45,254 nucleotides of DNA from an uncultured Candidatus Saccharibacteria bacterium (GCA_964559585.1 CAZLHE010000001.1:1-45254), one strand, 5' to 3'. Positions 3,535 to 45,254 are shown, counted from the stretch's first letter. A program made the numbers and translations. The notes: a model not told the origin generated them from the sequence alone.

Positions 3535-5079
3535 TTATTTTTTTTTGATTATGATGCTTATTTCATCCTCGTACACAGATTTCCATTGGGAGTTTTGATT
3601 GCTTTTTTCCAAAAGGTATTTAATAACTTTGCTTTTTGGTGTATCCAAAATCCAGGTTATGTTGTAGTCAGACAGGTACTTGTTTAGTAAATCAGAGTTT
3701 TTTTCGGGATCGTAGGAGATTAGACGGTACTCTTTAATAAAGAATTTTCCATTTTCATTCCAGGAGGTCATCCTCCCGTCAATAAATGTTTTGTATTCCG
3801 GAAGTTGCCATATCAAGTAACCACCCCAGTTATATACATTCCACATATTACCAACTATCGGGTTACTTTTGATGTACACCAAAGCGTTATATGGGTACTC
3901 TGCGTCCACAGACCAGTTGGAAATATCTGCTGCCAAAAAAACATTCTTCATAAATAAAGAACTTGTAGCAAAAACTAGGCACGCTAAAAAAACAACCAAA
4001 CATGTTTTTGGCAGATGCATTTTTTTATTCTTTACAAATGTAGATGTGTCTTCTATCAAAATCTCAAGCTCTTGGATTATGGCAAACGAGGATATGATAA
4101 AAAATATTCTTCCGAGATAAGATGCCTTAATCGAAAGCATGTAGAAGAGTACTATTAGGACTTTATACCACCAACCAAACCGAGCCTGCTTCCTCTTAAA
4201 AGCTGATAGGCCTGAAATTAAACCAACTGCTAAAAAAATGCTAATAAAAAGTGCCATGGGATCTTCAAAACTAAAGTTAAACGGCGCCCACTCTTGCACA
4301 AAGGATTTAATTGGCAGAGTGAGCTCTTTTGTAAGTGTGGTCCAAAGCTGTACCCCATAAGGGTTTAATAAAGTTAAAAGAGTGCAGAGTAAAAAAATCT
4401 TGAATGAGTTCAGGAAAGAACTGACAAAAAACCATAAGTTTTTAGTTTCTTTTATTCGAGCTATTTTTTGAACCCAGTTGTCTAAACAGTAAGCGCCATA
4501 GACGAAAAGTGCTAGTACAAAATCAGCGTGTACATTCGCCCAGATTAGAAAAATGAAGGGGAGAAACTTGATCCAATCTTTTTTAAAAAGGAGAATGTAA
4601 AACAGGAAAAACATAAATATAGTGCTGTAGTAGAAGGGTCTTACTGTAAGCGTATATATTGATAGAGCTACTGAAAGCAAGATGTAATTAATGGATAAGT
4701 TTAGAAGACTTTTCGTTTGTCTTTTTATTAAAATCAGAAGAATTGTATTCAAAATAAGGCTTAGAATTAATGTTGAGATAATACTTCCAAGAAAGTGGTG
4801 CGAAAGATACATAATTAATTCCGCGACCCAGTAGGAGTTAACCCATTTGTAATTTGTATTCGTATAGGAAAAGATGTTCTCCCTTAGAATCTTACCGTGT
4901 TGAACAAAGTACTCCCCATATTTATAGTGCCAGCCAAAATCAGGGTCGCTCGGCGGTTTAAAAGAAACGAGAGTTCCAAATATTACCAAGAGTAAGTAAA
5001 CGAGATTTGTTGTGTTGAAAATTTTTTTCACAATAAGCGAATTATATATTAATAAGTAAAAACTAGAGAATAACAACAA
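3535..5079 (-). CDS. polytopic membrane protein, GT-C-like glycosyltransferase candidate
   Basis: 514-aa ORF with a TTG start. It has 10 or more hydrophobic segments, an acidic first loop KPPSDPDFGWHYKYGEY, and a soluble C-terminal ~130 aa. The topology resembles ArnT/PMT-type GT-C enzymes; the family is not identified. Confidence 0.45.
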   Translation of the reverse strand: MLLFSSFYLLIYNSLIVKKIFNTTNLVYLLLVIFGTLVSFKPPSDPDFGWHYKYGEYFVQHGKILRENIFSYTNTNYKWVNSYWVAELIMYLSHHFLGSIISTLILSLILNTILLILIKRQTKSLLNLSINYILLSVALSIYTLTVRPFYYSTIFMFFLFYILLFKKDWIKFLPFIFLIWANVHADFVLALFVYGAYCLDNWVQKIARIKETKNLWFFVSSFLNSFKIFLLCTLLTLLNPYGVQLWTTLTKELTLPIKSFVQEWAPFNFSFEDPMALFISIFLAVGLISGLSAFKRKQARFGWWYKVLIVLFYMLSIKASYLGRIFFIISSFAIIQELEILIEDTSTFVKNKKMHLPKTCLVVFLACLVFATSSLFMKNVFLAADISNWSVDAEYPYNALVYIKSNPIVGNMWNVYNWGGYLIWQLPEYKTFIDGRMTSWNENGKFFIKEYRLISYDPEKNSDLLNKYLSDYNITWILDTPKSKVIKYLLEKSNQNSQWKSVYEDEISIIIKKK

Positions 5080-5118: not shown

Positions 5119-6918
5119 CTAATTAACTATTTCAAAATCAAACAGCGTGTTTTTTATTGAAACATACCCTGGGGCCCGAAGATTGAACACATTTTTAAAA
5201 ACACCTCCGTCGATAGTTACGTTTCCGTTATTTGTTTTTAATGTTACTTTTGAAGTGTACCCACCATTACTTATGTCCACGCTTATGTCGGACACGCTTG
5301 TATATTTGTTGTCTATATACTTTTCCGCAACGTCCCCCATCTTGTCTGTGGAGTACGGATCTCCTCCCCAACAGCTTGTTGTCAGAGGAGTTATGTGACT
5401 CTTTTCACCACTTGAACCTTTTGTATAAACAACCCACGCATTCAATATGTCCGCCATTTCAGATGATTTCATCCATGGGTGTGGGTGTCCGCACGTGCTG
5501 TTATCGTTGTAGCTTTTTGTGTACCAAGCTTTATAAAACCAGGGGGAACCGGCTTTCTTTTCGTATGCATCTGACGGCCAATCTCCTTTTACATCCCACC
5601 CCACATTGTTAATATAACCGCCGGTTGTGGATGAGTACTGGGACGTCTTTGGGTTGTCCAGGATTACACCCTTTGTTGAATCGACAGCATCTTTCCATTT
5701 CGACGGCGGGTTGTCGGATTTGCTTTTCGAAAATACCTGGCATGCCTGTGTTGTACAGATTGGTTTGCCGGATCTATAAGCGTAGGTTCTTGCAGCAATT
5801 GCCTGGGCTTTAAGAGCATCTGAATCCCAATCACTTGGCATTTCTGCTATGCCGTAAAGGTATTTTTGAAAGTCTAGTGTTCCATAGCCCTGTACACTGA
5901 TTGTTTTTGGAAAACTGCTTGGTTTTGTTGTTCCAACTTTGTAATAAAATTTCAAAATATCTTTATATCCCTGTCCGTTGTCGGCTCTTCCTTTTGCTCC
6001 GTACTGGCTCATTCCATTGCCATGGGTATATGCGCCGTAGCTGAATGCAGCAAAGGCTGGTTTAAAAGGAGCGGAAGGAGTTTTAGAAGATGGTTGCTCG
6101 TAATCTCCGACCGATCCATTTTCATCACTGTATTTCAAAGCTAATATTTTGTTTTGAAGGTTCTCAAGTTCTTTCTCATACTGAGTTGTTTTTTGTGAAA
6201 GTTCTTTTGCTTGACTTTGGGCTGTGGTTTTTCTTGCGGCAATGTCGTTTGTTAGAGAAATTAGATTTTTCTGTGCGGTTTCAAGTTTAGCTTTTAATTC
6301 TTCCGCAGTTTTTTTATCCTGTTCAAAACCTTGGATTTCGGAGTTTAAGGCGCTAATTATTTTTAAGGTTTCTTCATTCGCGGCTTTGCTGAATGCATAA
6401 AGGTAACTTGAAAGTTGAAAACCGGTAAGATTTGCGTTTTCGTTTCTGGCAAAGAAAAGTTCCAGGTCATTTAGAATGTTTTTCTTTGAGTAGTTTCGAA
6501 GAAGGGAGTTTCGAATTGCAATTTTGTCTGAGAGTTTCTGATTTCTGTCTGAGAGGTTTTGGCTTATTTCGTCTAGATCTTTTTTTATTCCGTTGATATC
6601 GTTTTGAACACCATCCAATTGAGCTTGGGTGACTGTTAGCTGGGATGAGAGTTGGTTGATGTTGTTTAGGGTTGAATCGAGAAGTGCCCTTGCGTTGCTA
6701 AGTTTAGCTTGTGTTTCCCTTTCTTTTTTTTCATAGCACGCGGTCCGGTCACTTAAATCTGATATGTTTTTACAAGTATCTTCAGCATAAGTATGTAATG
6801 GTTTTTCCGTTAGAAAAGTTAGAAATAATAGGGCGGTTGCCGTTACGAGTAATATTTTATTTGAGATTTTTTTTTGAAACATGTTGGTTAACCAAATTCT
6901 TGGAAAATAGCCTAGCAT
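5119..6918 (-). CDS. SpoIID/LytB-domain peptidoglycan-remodelling protein with N-terminal anchor and long coiled coil
   Basis: 599-aa ORF with a hydrophobic N-terminus and a ~220-aa heptad-rich Q/L/N/K region. SpoIID hallmarks are present: GMSQYGAKGRADNGQGYKDILKFYY and ALKAQAIAARTYA. Confidence 0.85.
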   Translation of the reverse strand: MLGYFPRIWLTNMFQKKISNKILLVTATALLFLTFLTEKPLHTYAEDTCKNISDLSDRTACYEKKERETQAKLSNARALLDSTLNNINQLSSQLTVTQAQLDGVQNDINGIKKDLDEISQNLSDRNQKLSDKIAIRNSLLRNYSKKNILNDLELFFARNENANLTGFQLSSYLYAFSKAANEETLKIISALNSEIQGFEQDKKTAEELKAKLETAQKNLISLTNDIAARKTTAQSQAKELSQKTTQYEKELENLQNKILALKYSDENGSVGDYEQPSSKTPSAPFKPAFAAFSYGAYTHGNGMSQYGAKGRADNGQGYKDILKFYYKVGTTKPSSFPKTISVQGYGTLDFQKYLYGIAEMPSDWDSDALKAQAIAARTYAYRSGKPICTTQACQVFSKSKSDNPPSKWKDAVDSTKGVILDNPKTSQYSSTTGGYINNVGWDVKGDWPSDAYEKKAGSPWFYKAWYTKSYNDNSTCGHPHPWMKSSEMADILNAWVVYTKGSSGEKSHITPLTTSCWGGDPYSTDKMGDVAEKYIDNKYTSVSDISVDISNGGYTSKVTLKTNNGNVTIDGGVFKNVFNLRAPGYVSIKNTLFDFEIVN

Positions 6919-9267: not shown

Positions 9268-12200
9268 CTAATTTTCTTCACATTGTATACTGGATGTTTC
9301 GTATCCCTCACACTCATCCATTGATGAGGGAACTCCCGTGCCAATTACAAAACTTTCCGATGTTATTATAACTTGGTCGTAACAGGTTTTTTCACTCCCG
9401 TCTATTTTTGGGATACTTACGGTGAAAAAGTTCTGAATCCGTGTGTTTTGAAGATCCGGATCCGCACTGTCAATTTCAATGTCGTATGTTATTTCTGTAT
9501 TGCCAGTGAAGTTTGTCAGCGGGAATGGGCCGTAACTACCTATTGGAATAATAACATCTTCATTTCCTTCTCTTTTAATACCCGCCACATTGTCTGTATA
9601 CATGACTCCGGCATCGGCAGGAATATTTGAGGCCTCCCCACCCGGTTTAATGGTAACTTTATATGTCACCTTTGTAGCACTTTGTGCGACAATCTCTTTT
9701 TCTAAAGTAAAAAATGAATTCGAGTTTTTATAGCATCTGACTGTTGAGGATGCTGTTCTATCAATAGGAGATACGCTAATTCCGAAAATGGCATAAAACA
9801 GACCTACAAATAATAAAAAAGGTGTTGCGACTGTAAGACAGCCCCACAGATAACATGTCGCCATTCTTTTTATATCTTTCTCTATCATTTTCGTAAGATC
9901 ACCGAAATCTCCTTTGAGCATGCCTCTAATCACCGCCTCCCCGTAACCGAGTACTTTCTTTAAAACAAAAGCAAGCGCCTTTTCTATTACGGGCATGATG
10001 ACAGCCAACCAGCCTGTTGCGGCTGCGGCACCGGCAATAAGTTTTGATATTAATTCTGATACAAGTGCGGAAACTTTGTTTGCCACAATGTCTTTCCAGT
10101 TTTGTATGGACGAGATGAGTTTTCCGGCCTTTGAGGCTATAAACCGTTTCTGAATCTCTTCGAGTTTCATGTGTACTTTCTCGAAGCTGCCTATGAAAGA
10201 TCGGTTTAGTTTATATCCCTGAGGAAGTTGCTTATTTTTCTTGAGGAGTTGTTTGAAAAGAGCAACTTGAAAATCCGGATCTAAAGCTTTGTCCCCGAGA
10301 TTTTCTGCATTCTTATGCATCCATTCTTTGTACCCTCCCATTTTTTTGAGAAAAGAAACATATTCCCCCTTATACTCACTGTTGTTTAGAACCTGCTCCA
10401 AACTAAGACCTCCGAAAAGTTTTTTGGCAAGCTCTTCACTTGTTGCTCTGTCTCTACCGCCAGTAAGTAGTTTTTTAAGCAGGGCTGTATCCTCAGCGTC
10501 ATCTAGGTCGAATAGTTTTCGATTGTTCAACTTCCCAATGCTCAAAAAGTCAAAATGTCCCCCTCCTTTTACAGTGAGATTTTTCAGCCCCCACGATTTA
10601 GTAAAATCGTTGTCAAAATTAACCTTTACATTAAAGCCGTATTTTTTAGCAATCTTTACATACTTATTGCCGGTAGGGTCGGTTTTCCTAAGATGATCAA
10701 AAACTGTTTTCATATCTTCGGATACTTTGAGTCCAAAGTAGTTTTGACTTTCTAGAAATTTTTCTACGTAATAAGATGGTAGAGCGGTTTTTATTCTTGG
10801 TTTGATTCTGTTATTCCATAGGTAGTTTTCAAGTAATTTTCCCTTATCCCAAGATTCTAAGAATTCTTCTGTTGCGTATCCTATTTTTTCTCTTCTTAGT
10901 CTGTATGCGACAGGAGCTAGCTTGCTGGCTTCTATTCTATATTTTTCATCTTGACGCAATGTTTCGTCTTGAAAAAGGGATCCTATTTGATCGTGTACCA
11001 GCTCTCCTTTTGAATTCTTTCTTTCCTTTGTACCTAGCATATCGGCTTCCATGTTCCTTCCTAGCTTTCTTTCGAGGCTGTCCTGGAACATGTCACCCTC
11101 GGTTAACTTAATCGATCTAAGTGAGGCGGCCCGGTTGAACGCTTCTATAGCAGCTTTTCCGGTAAGTCCTTTGGAGTTAATATTGGAAATTGTACTATCA
11201 AGGTCTCTAATATAACTTTTGTAATCCCCGGTGATTTTTTTGATGTTGTTGTATTGATAGTCCGAGATCTTACCATCGCTTTTTAGTTTTTCTATCGCTG
11301 CAAGATCTCTCTCAAGTGATGATTTTGCCCCAGTAATTCCATTTTTAAGATAATTAAACGAATCGCCCTTTTTCAGATAATCAAACGAATTGCCCTTCTC
11401 GTCCTTCGTTACTCCAACTAAAATCTGTTTTTTACTCCCTTTTATGTTATCATCGATAGATTTTTGAAGGTTACCAACATTTTTTAATATGTTATTTTTA
11501 ACATCGAATAATTCAACAGCACCGGAGTATTCTTCAAACCGCCTTTTTACTATGTCGCCTCCATTTTTAATACCATCGTTGTACTTTGAAGTTATCTCAA
11601 TGTTGACCGCTGATACAGCTTCTTTTAGGAAATCGTCGTGTCTGCTGTCTCTGAACTTAATATTTTCTCTGTTTTTCTCAAACTCCCCTATTTTATCCAC
11701 AGTTTTTTTGTACAAATCTTTATATGCTGGTAACCCAATCGACTCATCACCTTCTATATCTACCCCCTTTAAGTTCAACGGGTTGTCTGTTGTTCCGGAT
11801 GTTTTGAATCCGTAGGCAACTAGTGCCGCTACTGTTGATTCGGCGGATCCAATATCAAAAGGAATCTTTTCTTCTCCAAATCCCAAAGCCAGTTTCCACG
11901 TTCTTTCTCTTGTTTTATTTTCTATATCACTAAAGTCGCTATTAAAAACATCTTTCATGTCCACCCCTATTGTTTTTCTGACCCAGTCGTTAAGAGTTTT
12001 CGTAACTATTTTCCCAGAGTCTTTTTTCTTAGGGTCTTTAATATAATCAGCAGGATTTAAGGAGATTGAAATACCTTGTGCACCCGGAAGATCTTCCATC
12101 TCATAGTCGTCCAGCTCCGTTATGTTAATCTTAGTCGGCAAAATAGCAATTTTTAGGGAGTCCTTGAAATCATTGACAATACGGTCAACAACCCATTTCG

Positions 12201-20670: not shown

Positions 20671-20763
20671 GTATGTTAGTTTTCATCGATGGCTCCGAAG
20701 ACCCTGGGTTTAAAATAGAACGTGGTTCAGGTCGACCATTCGTTTGTGTTGTATAATTTAAAT

Positions 20764-36207: not shown

Positions 36208-36379
36208 ACTTCACTCACCACCTTTTATTTACTAAATTTAATTACCCCCTAAATCTACCACAAAGATATTATATAAGATTATTTTGGATCCCCATACGGA
36301 ACTTTATCCGAAGTTTTATAGGTGTGTTTAGTTTTGTGTGAGAAAAAGGAGTGAACCAATGCTTGAGTAAAAATGACCA

Positions 36380-40415: not shown

Positions 40416-40718
40416 ATGAATGTAGTACCTTCTAAATTCCAACCTTTATTTCCAAGCTCAAATATACAAAACCTAGATACCCAAAGGGATAAAGGCTATA
40501 TCATTCAAACTCTCTTAAAAACCTCAACATTGGATGGCTGGAAATGGATGCTAGAAACATACTCAAATGAAGATATTTCTGCAGTTCTCAGAACTTCTAG
40601 ATTGCTAACACCAAAAGATGCATATTTTTGGGGCCTTTTTTTACATGTCCCTCAAAGTGAAATATTATGTTTGAACAAAGACTTACAGAAAACGCCAAAA
40701 ACATCTTGGGTATATTAA
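40416..40718 (+). CDS. small protein upstream of the AbiEii-like nucleotidyltransferase (putative cognate antitoxin/partner)
   Basis: 100 aa. It overlaps the NTase gene by 52 nt. I recognised no motif, so the role is inferred from position only. Confidence 0.4.
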   Translation: MNVVPSKFQPLFPSSNIQNLDTQRDKGYIIQTLLKTSTLDGWKWMLETYSNEDISAVLRTSRLLTPKDAYFWGLFLHVPQSEILCLNKDLQKTPKTSWVY

Positions 40719-41308
40719 ATAAAGTTACGCCTCCCAAAAGTTATTTGGCTGGGGGTACAGCCCTTGCACTATGGATAAATCATAGAAATTCTTATGATCT
40801 GGATATTTATTCGCCTGTAGAGTTTGATCTTGATGAAATGACGCAAAAATTTGGTAGTGGGATTTCTGAATTTCAACTTATTTCTACTTCGTGGCAAACC
40901 TTACATGGAAAGTCAATAGACACTAAAATAAGTCTGTTTTACTATCAATATGAGCTTTTGAAAGAGGCAACAGAGTTTTTAAACTTTAAAATTGCGTCTG
41001 TTGAAGATATTGCAGCTATGAAACTAGAAGCAATAGCGGGAAGAGGTTTAAAAAGAGATTTTTACGATGTGTATAAAATAGCTAAAAATAAAGGGTGGTC
41101 TCTTAAGTATATGATTGGGCTAAATGATAAAAAATATGCTCGGCAGGGGAGTTTCACGCCCCATATCTTGAGGTCATTAGTGTACTTTGATGACGCAGAA
41201 AATTTGTCTGAACGATCTGTCGAGGTAGAAAAAGAGTGGGAAGAAGTAAAGCAGTTTTTTATACGGGAAATTTCACAATTATCGGAAAATAGACTTCAAA
41301 ATCTTTAA
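40667..41308 (+). CDS. nucleotidyltransferase AbiEii/AbiGii toxin-family protein
   Basis: 213 aa. YLAGGTALALWINHRNSYDLDIY (GGTAL...R.S.DLD) and later KRDFYDVYKI and LVYFDDAE are typical of the AbiEii (DUF1814) NTase fold. Confidence 0.7.
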   Translation: MFEQRLTENAKNILGILNKVTPPKSYLAGGTALALWINHRNSYDLDIYSPVEFDLDEMTQKFGSGISEFQLISTSWQTLHGKSIDTKISLFYYQYELLKEATEFLNFKIASVEDIAAMKLEAIAGRGLKRDFYDVYKIAKNKGWSLKYMIGLNDKKYARQGSFTPHILRSLVYFDDAENLSERSVEVEKEWEEVKQFFIREISQLSENRLQNL

Positions 41309-41426
41309 TTGGCTCCGCACCGTGAACAACGTTAGAACCATTTTTGAACATAAAGATGAGCATGTCTATATTCCAGACTTAAGACAAACAGCTTAATTTA
41401 CCCTACCATCTAACTCACTATTGTTT
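41309..41426. repeat. cassette-boundary repeat R1, copy a (~118 nt)
   Basis: TTGGCTCCGCACCGTGAACAACGTTAGAACCATTTTTGA... aligns along its whole length with 44852-44971. It starts directly after the AbiEii stop codon. Confidence 0.7.
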
Positions 41427-41497
41427 GAGAGAAAAAAAGCAGGGTCTATCTCGCTGGGATTATCCATACAAGTAGACCCCCTGTGTTATGCTGGCTT

Positions 41498-41764
41498 TTA
41501 GAATCTGCCGAACAGTCCTCCGAAGAGCAAAGAAAAGAGTCCACCTACTATAACCGCCACTATGAATGCGTAGTAGAGCAGATAGACCAGAGCCAGGAAG
41601 TACACGATGGAAGCTAAAGCCAAAAACACTCCCAAAACAATACTTCCTGCGGAGAATGCCCAAACGCATCCGCCTACGAGGACAAGCAGTATGACAAGAG
41701 CGAGCCACCCGAACCAAGTCTGGGCGAGGGCTTTGAACATATCACTTACCTTCAACGTAAACAT
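41498..41764 (-). CDS. 88-aa three-TM hypothetical protein (GC-rich)
   Basis: The SD AAGGAGA lies 8 nt upstream of the ATG. The protein is strongly hydrophobic. The overlapping alternative-frame ORF 41460..41717 is rejected. Confidence 0.55.
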   Translation of the reverse strand: MFTLKVSDMFKALAQTWFGWLALVILLVLVGGCVWAFSAGSIVLGVFLALASIVYFLALVYLLYYAFIVAVIVGGLFSLLFGGLFGRF

Positions 41765-41864
41765 ATGATATCTCCTTTGTTTAGTGTTCAGATGGGGTTT
41801 GTTACAGATTGTTATCAGTGTGATTATAGCTTAAAAAGGTTGTTTAGTCAACCTATAGCTTTTA

Positions 41865-41895
41865 TTGGCCCCCCATAGTGGACCTTATGCGAACC
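41865..41895. repeat. cassette-boundary repeat R2, copy a (31-nt core)
   Basis: TTGGCCCCCCATAGTGGACCTTATGCGAACC matches 43835-43865 at 30 of 31 positions and the first 31 nt of R1 at 20 of 31. Confidence 0.75.
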
Positions 41896-41983
41896 ATAGG
41901 GGAGTGTGCGTTAGGAGAAATAAAAATTCGTAAGGTCAGAGATATAGCTGAACTTTTCTGATGGGGATGTTAAAAAACTTCAA

Positions 41984-43795
41984 TTAGTCCAATTCCCATG
42001 CAACTGGTAGTGTGCCTTTGAAGGGGTAGTCTCCGAACAGGATATCAGCCACACCCTGTCCCTCACTACCGGGTAACCATGCTGCGACAATGGCGTCCCA
42101 ATCTCGATAGTACTTATTTATATCGAGTGGTCTGCCAGATACTATTACTACAACTACCTTCTTACTGACCGCCTTTATTCTCTGTATAGCTAAAAGGTCA
42201 ACTTCGCTTAGTGAGGGGTGTTCGGAGTCTCCCCACCCTTCGGCATAAGGCTTTTCACCAACAACAACAATTCCAACATCTGCAAAATCATTTTCCATAG
42301 AAAAATCTCCTTTTTCGTTATATTCAACCTCTGTATTTTTAGAAGCCGTATTTTTTATTGCCTCAAGTATAGTGGTCCCTAAAATACCATAATTACCATC
42401 TATGCCTTGCCACTCTGTCGTCCATCCTCCTGCCTGGCGGCCTAGATTGTCTGCTGATGCTCCAGCAACTACAATTTTGTTCAATGATTTAGATAGCGGC
42501 AATACAGAGTTTTTATTTTTTAATAGTACCTGAGATTTACGAACTGCTTCCCTGGCTAACTCACGATGTTGGTCGTTGCCTATAACAGACAATCCTTCTG
42601 GCTGGGCCTCGGGGCGGTCAAATAATCCTGTCTCAAATTTTACAGTTAAAATTCTTTTTACGGCATCGTCTATTCTCTCTTTTGTTATGTCGCCATTAGA
42701 TAAAGCCCTTTGCATATTAGTCATAAAGTCTTTGTATGTAAACGGGGTCATTACCATATCAATACCTGCATTAATCGCAATTACCAGAGAATCATATTTG
42801 CTAGGCGAGATTGCATAAACTCCCCACCAATCAGAGACTATAAAACCGGAAAAGCTAAGCTCGTTTTTTAATACATCTGTTAAAAGATAATGATTAGTAG
42901 AATTTAATTTACCTTTCCAACTGCCCGTGTTTACCATAATAACTCGTGCTCCGCCAGCCACGGCTTTTTGAAAAGGAACGAGGTGGACTTGGCGCAAAGT
43001 TTTTTCGTCTAAAGTTATATCTCCCTCTTCAATTTTGAAATCTTTATTACGGGAAGTTCCATATTCCATATCTCCACCAGCTATAAAGTGTTTGGAACTA
43101 GCTAACACTTTTAAATAGCCCTCGGAGGAATTCTGAGTTCCTTTTAGATAAGCTAAGCCTAGTTGTGAAACATTTGTGGTATCTGATCCGAAAGTTTCAT
43201 ATGTTTTACCCCAACGAATATCCTTAACAACATCAAGATTGGGAGCGAAGTTCCAATAAATCCCAGTGGCAGCCATCTCTTCTGCAGTTGCTTCCGCAAC
43301 TCGTCTTACTAAATCCGGGTCCCTGGTTGCCCCCAAACCAATAAAATGAGGAAAAATTGTAGCTCCCAAAACATTACCATGCCCGTGTATAGCATCAGTT
43401 CCATAGAGAAGCGGTATTCCTAGACAAGTTTTTTTTGTTGCTGATTGGAAGTTGTTTATCATTTGAAGCCATGCCAATGGAGTGTCTTGTTTAGGCCCCG
43501 CCCCACCGCCACTCAATAACGCTCCCAAATTATATTGTGTGATATCGTTAATGTTGTGAATGCTGTTTTTTTCAATTAAAACCATTTGACCAATTTTTTC
43601 CCAATCATTCATTTTACTCATTAAGTCATTTACTCTATCTTGGATGGGCAAATTAGAATTCAAGTATGGTAAATCTTTTTGTTTGCATCTCTCAGATAAA
43701 TTATCATTGCGTGGAATTGCGCGTTTATTTTTTAACGCAAAAAAACCTAAAGTTAGAAGTATTACAGTGCAAAACAATATCGATAAATACTTCAT
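41984..43795 (-). CDS. glycoside hydrolase family 3 (beta-glucosidase/BglX-like), N-terminally anchored
   Basis: 603 aa with an N-terminal TM helix. GH3 motifs are present: KHFIAGGDMEYG, and the nucleophile context SGFIVSDWWGV. The C-terminal domain has VVVIVSGRPL. Confidence 0.85.
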   Translation of the reverse strand: MKYLSILFCTVILLTLGFFALKNKRAIPRNDNLSERCKQKDLPYLNSNLPIQDRVNDLMSKMNDWEKIGQMVLIEKNSIHNINDITQYNLGALLSGGGAGPKQDTPLAWLQMINNFQSATKKTCLGIPLLYGTDAIHGHGNVLGATIFPHFIGLGATRDPDLVRRVAEATAEEMAATGIYWNFAPNLDVVKDIRWGKTYETFGSDTTNVSQLGLAYLKGTQNSSEGYLKVLASSKHFIAGGDMEYGTSRNKDFKIEEGDITLDEKTLRQVHLVPFQKAVAGGARVIMVNTGSWKGKLNSTNHYLLTDVLKNELSFSGFIVSDWWGVYAISPSKYDSLVIAINAGIDMVMTPFTYKDFMTNMQRALSNGDITKERIDDAVKRILTVKFETGLFDRPEAQPEGLSVIGNDQHRELAREAVRKSQVLLKNKNSVLPLSKSLNKIVVAGASADNLGRQAGGWTTEWQGIDGNYGILGTTILEAIKNTASKNTEVEYNEKGDFSMENDFADVGIVVVGEKPYAEGWGDSEHPSLSEVDLLAIQRIKAVSKKVVVVIVSGRPLDINKYYRDWDAIVAAWLPGSEGQGVADILFGDYPFKGTLPVAWELD

Positions 43796-43834
43796 AAACT
43801 AATGATAATACTATAAAGGAATACAAACTACCAA

Positions 43835-43865
43835 TTGGCTCCCCATAGTGGACCTTATGCGAACC
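43835..43865. repeat. cassette-boundary repeat R2, copy b (31-nt core)
   Basis: The sequence is TTGGCTCCCCATAGTGGACCTTATGCGAACC. Confidence 0.75.
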
Positions 43866-43910
43866 GTTGAGAAGTTAGTGTTTGCTAAGGCACAATGGAT
43901 GTAGGGGGTA

Positions 43911-44381
43911 TTAGTTATGAGGTGAATTTCGCTGTTTTAATGCCTCATCAATCAAAAACACCTGATTTTTTCGAAGAAGGGGAAGTTTGTCTTGGGTAAA
44001 GAAACCGCATTCAGAGACTTCATGAGTTGGGATGAAATCTCCACCAATTAGAACACCGATGTAACACATATCCAAACGGGCAGTGTCACGGTCGGTACGA
44101 GTTTTGAGTGATTCATCGATACTAACAACCAACCCTGACTCTTCTTCGATTTCTCTTTCTAGTGCTTCGCGGGGATGCTCACCGGATTTTAAATAACCAC
44201 CGGGTAAACTCCAAGCGTGTGATCTATAAGTATGTTTGAAAAGAAGAATTTCGTTTTTATCATTAAAAATAATCCCGGTGACACCAACTAAAAATCTATC
44301 TTGAAAAAAACGCATGACCAACAGTTGAAGACCTTTGGGGAGATGAAGTGCTTTCCAAAGTTTTGCTAGTAATGTTTTCAT
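43911..44381 (-). CDS. NUDIX hydrolase
   Basis: 156 aa. The Nudix box is GGYLKSGEHPREALEREIEEESGL (GX5EX7REUXEEXGU). Confidence 0.85.
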   Translation of the reverse strand: MKTLLAKLWKALHLPKGLQLLVMRFFQDRFLVGVTGIIFNDKNEILLFKHTYRSHAWSLPGGYLKSGEHPREALEREIEEESGLVVSIDESLKTRTDRDTARLDMCYIGVLIGGDFIPTHEVSECGFFTQDKLPLLRKNQVFLIDEALKQRNSPHN

Positions 44382-44722
44382 AAAGCGTTCGGATCTTCCG
44401 GTTTGACACCCTCGCCATGTTGTAGTTTTTCGTTTTCTAACTCTAATTGGTGGACACGTTTGGTTAACTCAAGCACCTCGTCTTTCCCTTTTTTTATTTC
44501 GTTATCTTTCCCACGGATTTTAAAGGAGATAGAAATGGCGTGGATAAGGTAAACCACATAGGACAGTACTAATCCGAAGAGCAGTGAACCAACAATTACG
44601 TAAAACAGTGGAATATTCGAAAAAGCATACCACCCCAAATTAACTGAAACCGGCGTAAAATTAAATTTTGATATATAGACAAGGATTAAGCCGACAACCA
44701 AAAGCAAGATTAAAACTAACAT
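44378..44722 (-). CDS. LapA-domain (DUF1049-like) membrane protein with C-terminal coiled coil
   Basis: 114 aa with two TM helices followed by KGKDEVLELTKRVHQLELENEKLQ. It overlaps the NUDIX gene by 4 nt. A TACAAT lies 7 nt upstream of its ATG. Confidence 0.5.
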   Translation of the reverse strand: MLVLILLLVVGLILVYISKFNFTPVSVNLGWYAFSNIPLFYVIVGSLLFGLVLSYVVYLIHAISISFKIRGKDNEIKKGKDEVLELTKRVHQLELENEKLQHGEGVKPEDPNAL

Positions 44723-44804
44723 ATACTTTATTGTACGCTTATCTAGTGTCCTTAAGGTACTTACGTAATAAGTTTAATCCTCGTGTGAGTTGAAAAAATA
44801 GCCT

Positions 44805-44939
44805 ATGGATGAGGTGAAAATAGAGTTGCGTAGAGTTCGGATAACACGTGCTTGGCTCCGCATCGTGAACAACGTTAGAACCATTTTTGAGAGGAAAGGT
44901 GAGTATATCTACATTCCCGACTTAAGACCAACAGTTTAG
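44805..44939 (+). CDS. possible 44-aa ORF whose C-terminal two-thirds is repeat R1b
   Basis: Hand translation gives MDEVKIELRRVRITRAWLRIVNNVRTIFERKGEYIYIPDLRPTV. There is no SD. The R1a copy has the same reading frame and stop position but no start codon. Confidence 0.25.
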   Translation: MDEVKIELRRVRITRAWLRIVNNVRTIFERKGEYIYIPDLRPTV

Positions 44940-44971
44940 TTTTTACCCCACCACACCACTCACTATTGTTT
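44852..44971. repeat. cassette-boundary repeat R1, copy b (~120 nt)
   Basis: TTGGCTCCGCATCGTGAACAACGTTAGAACCATTTTTGAGAGG...CACTCACTATTGTTT aligns with 41309-41426. Confidence 0.7.
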
Positions 44972-44981
44972 ACATATTTAG

Positions 44982-45254
44982 TTATCCGCCCAAAACTTTC
45001 GTGATCTCCCTTTTAAGCCTGGAAAAGCCATGTTTATTAAGATTCAATTCTTTAACCTCAAAGGTCTCGTCTAGGAAAACCTTAAGGCTATCTAAGCTCG
45101 TTTGTAAGTTGTAGATTTTCGAAATCTCCTTAATCTTGCTAAGTTCAACGACCCCTGAATTTATAAGAGCCAGTATGTCGATAAGATCCTTTCTTCCTTT
45201 ATTTGAGCGGCCTCTTTGTTGCAGTGTGAAAATTTTTAGAACCGCAAGATAGTT
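44982..45254 (-). CDS. 3' part of a CDS truncated by the window edge (hypothetical)
   Basis: The minus-strand frame is open from the window end to the TAA at 44984-44982 (90 codons). It reads ...QQRGRSNKGRKDLIDILALINSGVVELSKIKEI...REITKVLGG. It is absent from the ORF track because it has no start codon. Confidence 0.4.
   Translation of the reverse strand, partial: NYLAVLKIFTLQQRGRSNKGRKDLIDILALINSGVVELSKIKEISKIYNLQTSLDSLKVFLDETFEVKELNLNKHGFSRLKREITKVLGG

Follow-up and report, generated by a model that had tools for sequence, protein, structure and literature searches.

What are the repeats that set off one small gene module after another towards the end of contig C1 in the draft genome of an uncultured Candidatus Saccharibacteria bacterium (GCA_964559585.1, CAZLHE010000001.1:1-45254)? 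The contig ends at position 45254 and was analysed as a whole, hereafter the window; the assembly amounts to 626 kb in 84 contigs and is ~85% complete. Between positions 41309 and 44971, four co-oriented repeat copies on the plus strand (R1a, R2a, R2b and R1b) alternate with genes on the minus strand, an arrangement that a sequence-only reading had likened to an integron or to a series of insertions, with no recombinase in view. Here, we argue that the repeats are very probably attL junctions, that is, the element-side junctions of elements moved by large serine recombinases (LSRs), with attP lying inside the 3' end of the LSR gene itself and integration directed to the CCA end of tRNA genes. 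What is found in the window itself is relics only.

R1a (41309-41426) and R1b (44852-44971) are 86% identical over their first 91 nt and 83% identical over their last 30 nt, with a 2-nt indel between, and R2a (41865-41912) and R2b (43835-43882) agree at 30 of the 31 positions of their heads and stay similar over 49 nt (84%). The unit common to all is this 31-nt head (TTGGCTCC...GAACC), located at 41309-41339, 41865-41895, 43835-43865 and 44852-44882. The frame shared by R1 and R2, TTGGCYCCNCANNGTGRACNNNNTNNGAACC, occurs four times in the window against 0.00 expected from 100 shuffles. In these respects the sequence-only reading was accurate: the coordinates and identities of the copies hold, gene calls and Pfam confirm the order of the genes between them, and the W-L-x-x-V-x-x-[VM]-R-T peptide with its AGA and CGA arginine codons is present, as is an open reading frame (ORF) of 44 aa at 44805-44939.

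All R1 copies keep a single frame from the initial TGG, W-L-R-[IT]-V-N-N-V-R-T-I-F-E-x-x-x-E-[HY]-[IV]-Y-I-P-D-L-R, which is closed by a stop codon (TAA, TAG or TGA) at a constant place and followed by a box, TTTACCCCACC-N6-ACTCACTAT; upstream of the TGG there is no conservation, and a start codon is usually missing. When 134 genomes of the class were searched in six frames, the R1 peptide turned up in 23, and in one of them, G040, it lies within an open frame of 557 aa. The G040 gene encodes a 552-aa protein with Resolvase (PF00239, 1.1e-23) and Recombinase (PF07508, 7.9e-19) domains, and a zinc ribbon (PF13408) that scored under the Pfam cut-off (E 4.5e-4). Residues R8-V9-S10 are invariant, and its AlphaFold model matched solved serine integrase-att complexes in Foldseek (E 5.7e-21), with the Bxb1, phiC31 and LI integrases matched as well. 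By its domains, catalytic serine and fold, the G040-type protein is a member of the LSR family. Its ORF ends ...RPIWPRTVYNVRTIFEEQDEHIYIPDLKLIEVEI*, followed by the box, such that its last 31 codons and the box together form a complete R1 element. The R1 copies of the window have a 3' end of identical type, in which the head is followed by the last ~20 LSR codons, a stop and the conserved 30-nt box: in R1a, tail codons occupy 41310-41393 (WLRTVNNVRTIFEHKDEHVYIPDLRQTA), the stop 41394-41396 and the box 41397-41426, with a putative crossover TC at 41314-41315; in R1b, tail codons occupy 44853-44936 (WLRIVNNVRTIFERKGEYIYIPDLRPTV), the stop 44937-44939 and the box 44942-44971.

The closest homologues of the G040 protein (38-54% identity) align with it only to W522. 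From the TGG of this residue onward their sequence is W-L-G-D-R-D-S-N-P..., a tRNA gene read in antisense, and ARAGORN placed a tRNA-Asn or tRNA-Gln precisely where the ORFs of the homologues leave the alignment. The TGG of the LSR gene is the antisense of the tRNA CCA, and TGGCTC that of ...GAGCCA. Species-representative genomes, mostly annotated as Patescibacteria lineages, contain at least 505 LSR relatives; among the best 80, which were examined, 45 overlap an antisense tRNA, mostly tRNA-Asn(GTT), and 3 keep R1-type tails, which are also the type present in L176 and L180. LSR ORFs were found reading into antisense tRNA-Asn, -Gln or -Asp. Because the repeats correspond to the intact 3' end of an LSR gene and relatives are fused to an antisense tRNA at the very same TGG, we place attP inside the LSR gene. 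R2 belongs to a second LSR subfamily whose tail is short, so that only ~31-49 nt of it are recognisable. No relatives were found in viral contigs searched with the G040 LSR, and the G040 tail region matched only itself in a set of 5.8 billion proteins.

The tail is conserved as protein. In a test on 25 distinct R1-type copies, the W frame was the only one open in all, and tail codons 11-25, situated beyond the 25-bp half-site, differed at codon positions 1, 2 and 3 by 0.41, 0.21 and 0.52; 52% of single-base codon differences were synonymous, against 20% expected. Over the 30 nt upstream of the TGG, by comparison, the mean pairwise difference was 0.73, i.e. random. The R1 tail peptide is under purifying selection, and the protein-level conservation at which the arginine codons had hinted is real. 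TTAGAAC is nearly invariant, third codon positions included, as expected for coding sequence that doubles as a binding motif, which explains why the codon is AGA in R1 and CGA in R2. The tail peptide comes from the 3' end of the LSR gene that the elements themselves carry, and not from that of a target gene. Its motif stands at the C-terminus of 189 representative-protein clusters, on short ORFs of 24-378 aa (almost all 24-210 aa) whose N-termini have no common length. Restriction of the motif almost entirely to such ORFs fits detached C-terminal integrase pieces (Int(C)), with intact tail-bearing genes rare in public data. Like the 44-aa ORF of the window, the 189 clusters are probably products of faulty gene calling over attL junctions, which flags many short public ORFs as miscalls.

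The spacing within the heads is that of an attP half-site. Where the tRNA-Asn 3' end reads TGGCTCCCCCGGGTGGAT-TCGAACC, R2 reads TGGCTCCCCATAGTGGAC-CTTAT-GCGAACC and R1 TGGCTCCGCACCGTGAAC-AACGT-TAGAACC. A pattern search with flexible spacing found every real head to consist of a tRNA 3' end with exactly 5 bp added before T[CA]GAAC, spanning 29 nt, with T[CA]GAAC starting at nt 24 in all real heads versus nt 19 in tRNAs. For the LI integrase, attP has the zinc-ribbon-domain (ZD) motif 5 bp further out than attB does, a shift with which the head geometry agrees (PMC3783163). In our own reading, the GTTC/GAAC symmetry between the N-terminal integrase end (Int(N)) and the head would put the axis at nt 5-6 of TGGCTC. 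If the axis is placed there, heads have their distal motif ending at half-site position 24 and tRNAs at 19, which agrees with the outer limits of the published half-sites (16-24 in attP and 11-19 in attB; PMC3783163). A possible fifth copy that had been proposed at 20690 is not a family member, since its GAAC lies 3 nt out of register (32-nt span versus 29) and its frame stops after 7 codons.

Heads also carry the signature of their target. Among the tRNAs of this genome, only tRNA-Asn has the TGGCTCC 3' end with which the window heads begin, and heads of elements at tRNA-Gln begin TGGCTGG; the target-derived part of the repeat is thus its first ~7 nt, the CCA end of tRNA-Asn. At tRNA-Gln, both ends of an element are present in three genomes, with a head upstream of Int(N)|tRNA-Gln in G024 (an element of ~8.7 kb), in G079 (~16 kb) and likewise in G101. 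The G024 element contains minus-strand cargo, a rolling-circle Rep (PF05144) and an LSR; an empty-site comparison within the genus of G024 returned no DNA match. In the genome studied here, five other heads (C26:677, C26:1658, C42:308, C48:2396 and C27:118) open with 6-7 nt that match the 3' end of whichever antisense tRNA comes next: tRNA-Tyr for two of them, and tRNA-Phe, tRNA-Ser and tRNA-Gln for one each. The genome therefore has at least five tRNA-linked islands, yet a domain search found no serine recombinase anywhere in the assembly, extending to all contigs the earlier remark that none was in view.

Integration may be pictured as follows. Crossover within TGGCTC at the tRNA CCA end would split the LSR gene. 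Some 520 codons (~520) would stay beside the tRNA and read into its antisense strand, forming attR with Int(N), and the last ~14-31 codons, together with the box in the R1 type, would move to the far end of the element behind the 31-nt P' half-site, there to be seen as R1 (the full form) or R2 (the short-tail subfamily). The enzyme would thereby exchange its C-terminal tail for antisense-tRNA residues. In the AlphaFold model of the G040 LSR, residues 490-552 have a predicted local distance difference test score (pLDDT) below 50, and the tail starts ~37 residues past the last confidently folded element. As the split removes only a tail beyond the folded part, the model suggests that the integrated enzyme is probably not inactivated.

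How one such junction became an array is suggested by G101, in which four co-oriented heads, each followed by minus-strand accessory genes, precede a live element with an LSR at tRNA-Gln. Since this layout is also that of the window, the best interpretation of the window array is one insertion after another at tRNA-Asn, with the older ones lying further out and the recombinase modules lost. Each element would have brought outward-facing cargo and would later have shed its recombinase and replication modules. The earlier suggestion that the repeats mark boundaries left by successive insertions is supported. Comparison across genomes points to the same junctions: synteny with the sister genome G013 (96%) starts precisely at 44853, the left edge of R1b, and in G013 the R1-plus-nucleotidyltransferase module lies at another locus, the flanks of which are 400 bp apart on contig C46 of the present genome. 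Around tRNA-Asn (C76), synteny stops precisely at the CCA, and G013 has two R1 copies less than 3 kb from its tRNA-Asn. One possible route for the loss of modules is that a second insertion beside a resident element would join Int(N) to a head, making a full LSR gene with attP; if this rebuilt attP then recombined with a pseudo-attB close by, the recombinase module would be lost and flank|head would remain. Intact LSR genes lie inside apparent tandems in G040 and G018. The scars of the window are most likely inert, since no serine recombinase gene was found in the assembly.

Several observations weigh against this account. We recovered no circular, excised form; in G040 the intact gene sits in an apparent tandem, on a contig that is not circular. 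The array has no physical link to tRNA-Asn in the assembly, which we attribute to fragmentation, C1 ending at 45254 and the tRNA-Asn lying 73 nt from the start of C76. Neither an Int(N) fragment nor a P arm is present to the left of any head in this genome, so that clean loss of every recombinase module must be assumed. Simple decay does not account for this, nor for the lack of serine recombinase domains in the assembly, the spacing of 40-130 bp between heads and start codons or the box-head abutments. To our knowledge, a site already occupied is closed to re-integration under canonical LSR rules. Direct abutment of a box to the next head, seen in three places (C24:4709|4710, C24:5359|5360 and window 36275|36284), is not predicted, and where contigs are joined across 120-nt repeats, misassembly is possible in principle.

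A bolder extension, which we put forward tentatively and regard as doubtful, is that the tail reads out integration state and, combined with self-deletion in tandems, makes these elements an integron-like accumulator of cassettes, built on a serine recombinase and working at tRNA genes. A circular or tandem copy would then encode the full-length enzyme, and a lone integrated copy one with an antisense-tRNA ending; tandem insertion would rebuild both attP and the full-length enzyme, which would delete its own module against pseudo-attB sites, each self-deletion leaving a promoter-bearing cargo cassette capped by a head. If the tail does control activity or directionality, no separate directionality factor would be needed.

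Among the alternatives to attL scars, the one that survives best, though we think it unlikely, holds that the cassettes are still mobile in the manner of cis-mobilisable or integron cassettes, and that heads are active sites at which an LSR acting in trans excises, captures and reshuffles them. The head-plus-minus-strand-cargo layout recurs in G101 beside a live LSR, heads are well preserved (that of R2b is identical to a copy at C24:6185), and the R1b module occupies different loci in two sister genomes. Yet all heads are co-oriented and of the B|P' type, none has a P arm (GT[TC]C[CT]NNN before TGG) to its left, attL x attL pairing is not known for LSRs (PMC3783163), and the assembly offers no serine recombinase to act on them. 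Moreover, the sole difference between the R2a and R2b heads, C at 41870 versus T at 43840, falls on the putative crossover dinucleotide, which would make the two incompatible partners if the sites were active.

It is very improbable that a chromosomal target gene had its 3' end duplicated with each insertion and that the repeats are what is left of it in nested form, as the sequence-only reading had also proposed. Protein-level conservation and a common left boundary had made this attractive, and the idea survives for TGGCTCC, which does derive from the target, tRNA-Asn; the peptide, however, belongs to the recombinase itself, the heads carry a 5-bp insertion of attP type and draw no tRNA call from ARAGORN, and no non-recombinase chromosomal gene ending WLRIVNNVRTIF...IPDLR occurs among the 189 representative clusters. 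We give equally little credence to independent small genes, such as the 44-aa ORF, or to a small or tRNA-like RNA serving the minus-strand cassettes: R1b does have an ATG, G-U changes are tolerated among copies in a 5-bp hairpin on the minus strand (CGUUG-UUCA-CGAUG) and the tail is under purifying selection, but ~30 copies share neither a conserved start nor an N-terminus, public ORFs with the motif vary from 24 to 378 aa, and the repeats show no fold signal and belong to no Rfam family. Least credible of all is an integron-like array of attC sites, each recombined in folded single-stranded form by a tyrosine integrase, which would account for one co-oriented repeat per cassette and for unrelated accessory genes, but neither strand folds better than shuffled controls (z -0.06 to +1.06, in line with the earlier failure to see an attC-type hairpin), there is no Rfam match at the repeats, the repeats are continuous with LSR genes in relatives, and the three tyrosine recombinase genes of the assembly lie on C2, C5 and C73 only and not on the window contig.

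Other candidates were set aside along the way. The repeats are not a tRNA or a displaced tRNA fragment, as ARAGORN and Rfam are negative there and the 5-bp insertion relative to tRNA-Asn breaks the T arm; a right end of an insertion sequence or a TnpB guide-RNA scaffold was dropped on finding the LSR 3' end. The same finding disposed of a T7-like promoter in the box (ACTCACTAT), which a sigma-70 scan did not flag. Of 57 heads surveyed, 19 have the box after the LSR stop, and in some relatives an intrinsic-terminator hairpin takes its place (window 41397-41426 and 44942-44971; loci L035 and L036).

How do these attL scars and their LSRs compare with known systems? The enzymes resemble the large serine integrases of phages and of integrative and conjugative elements (Listeria A118/LI Int, phiC31, Bxb1, TP901-1) in their Resolvase, recombinase and zinc-ribbon/coiled-coil architecture, in short att sites with a central dinucleotide and in a ZD motif placed 5 bp further out in attP. 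They differ in that attP lies in the enzyme's own 3' coding end, the target is a tRNA CCA end, and integration replaces a conserved tail of 14-31 residues by antisense-tRNA residues. In the literature searched, we found no published description of attP inside an LSR gene with a swap of the tail, and an LSR with attP inside its own gene at a tRNA end seems to be undescribed in print. The nearest counterpart is found among SSV-type ('suicidal') tyrosine integrases of archaeal viruses and plasmids, in which attP lies in the integrase ORF, tRNAs are the targets, and the gene is partitioned into Int(N) and Int(C), with Int(C) relics and hybrid genes rebuilt in tandems; according to the same paper, they are so far confined to archaea (PMC7253208). 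All of these features have parallels here, but the SSV-type enzyme is a tyrosine recombinase inactivated by a mid-gene split, whereas here a serine recombinase loses only the last ~30 of ~550 residues. Assignment to the SSV type was therefore rejected: attP is in the ORF, but the enzyme is a serine recombinase and only a tail beyond the folded domains is removed.

Tycheposons, which build tRNA islands in Prochlorococcus, show how successive integrations at one tRNA push older elements outward (10.1101/2020.12.28.424599). They share with the elements described here repeat-bounded cargo, degenerate remnants and outward displacement, but mostly use tyrosine recombinases and have a partial tRNA as their repeat, in place of a P' half-site with a recombinase 3' end. 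Composite SCCmec islands, inserted by CcrAB at rlmH (orfX), are a case from the serine-recombinase family with serial accretion at one site and recombinase-less pseudo-SCC elements between direct repeats; their repeat comes from the 3' end of the target, a gene that encodes a protein, and attSCC lies outside ccr, unlike the design here. With integron arrays, the window has in common one co-oriented repeat per accessory-gene cassette, without a folded attC or IntI, the repeats being double-strand half-sites of an LSR.

Integration of this kind would explain the entry of accessory genes (toxin-antitoxin pairs, GH3, NUDIX and membrane proteins) into minimal genomes, and why their cassettes are co-oriented. 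It would carry over to bacterial serine integrases a principle, attP inside the integrase gene, that has so far been reported from tyrosine integrases of archaea alone, and would do so in a form that is non-suicidal and swaps the tail. Serine integrases are widely used in genome engineering, and natural attP/attB pairs could be read from genome sequence, head against tRNA 3' end, for hundreds of them.

Turning to the genes between the repeats, the left side of R1a is occupied by a putative type IV toxin-antitoxin pair on the plus strand (40416..41308), a DUF6922 protein (PF21956, 1.9e-8) and an AbiEii nucleotidyltransferase toxin (PF08843, 3.7e-14), the stop codon of which directly adjoins the R1a head. 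The first cargo cassette (41498..41764, minus strand) encodes a small membrane protein of 88 aa with no Pfam match, and the second (41984..43795, minus strand) a GH3 glycoside hydrolase of 603 aa (PF00933, 5.7e-70; PF01915, 4.7e-35). GH3 is an accessory gene: of 13 other genomes in the genus, only 2 have it, and its homologues in G012 and G008 have no flanking heads. The third cassette (43911..44722, minus strand) holds a NUDIX hydrolase (43911-44381; PF00293, 4.1e-16) and a LapA-domain membrane protein (44378-44722; PF06305, 5.3e-9). The 3' part of an AbiEii/DUF6036-like nucleotidyltransferase gene (44982..45254, minus strand), 96% identical to that of G013, forms the cargo of the R1b element. 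The sequence-only reading had called this gene truncated; it is incomplete here, but is cut by the contig end only, and its orthologue of 203 aa is intact in G013. For the cassette left of each head, the distance from head to start codon is 40-130 bp.

Promoter-like sites were seen on the minus strand beside R2a and R2b only. One (41851-41823; TTGACT-17-TATAAT, 11 of 12 positions) lies upstream of the membrane-protein gene and the other (43834-43805; TTGGTA-18-TATTAT) upstream of the GH3 gene; judging by these motifs, both cassettes appear to bring their own promoters. AbiE-like nucleotidyltransferase genes, resembling type IV toxin-antitoxin systems, stand tail-to-tail with the R1 box end in three genomes (window 44982-45254, L060:8423-9602 and L061 near 7500), which suggests a stabilising module beside the LSR 3' end.

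The repeat family extends well beyond the four copies, all of which are real. A degenerate head at 36284-36314 (TTGGATCCCCATACGGAACTTTATCCGAAGT) had been missed in the window; it is preceded by a box-like remnant (36240-36275) and resembles the 3' end of the G018 LSR gene (TGGCTCCCCATTGTTGTATTTATCCGAAGT), and the whole unit (36240..36314, plus strand) is possibly the outermost and oldest scar of the array. A genome-wide search, as the sequence-only reading had advised, found at least 12 further copies on at least six other contigs: a dense array on C24, with heads at 4592, 4710, 5249, 5360, 6185 and 6746, and others on C40, C42, C48, C26, C27 and C72. A third repeat type, R3, is represented on C24, and in G018 it forms the intact tail of another LSR. 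Within C24:3300-6800 (locus L009), at least six heads of the three types (R1, R2 and R3) are packed into 3.5 kb. Twice, a full R unit gives way directly to the next head without intervening cargo, and the cargo includes another NUDIX gene on the minus strand (5522-6121). In L060 (G013:C1), two identical copies of tRNA-Ile(GAT), at 10493-10569 and 11976-12052, bracket 1.4 kb, and just upstream of the pair lies a 26-nt tRNA-Asn-like fragment with attB-type spacing (TGGCTCCCTAGAATGGGCTCGAACC); the tRNA-Ile region resembles an element without an LSR that was captured by another island, a second and different one.

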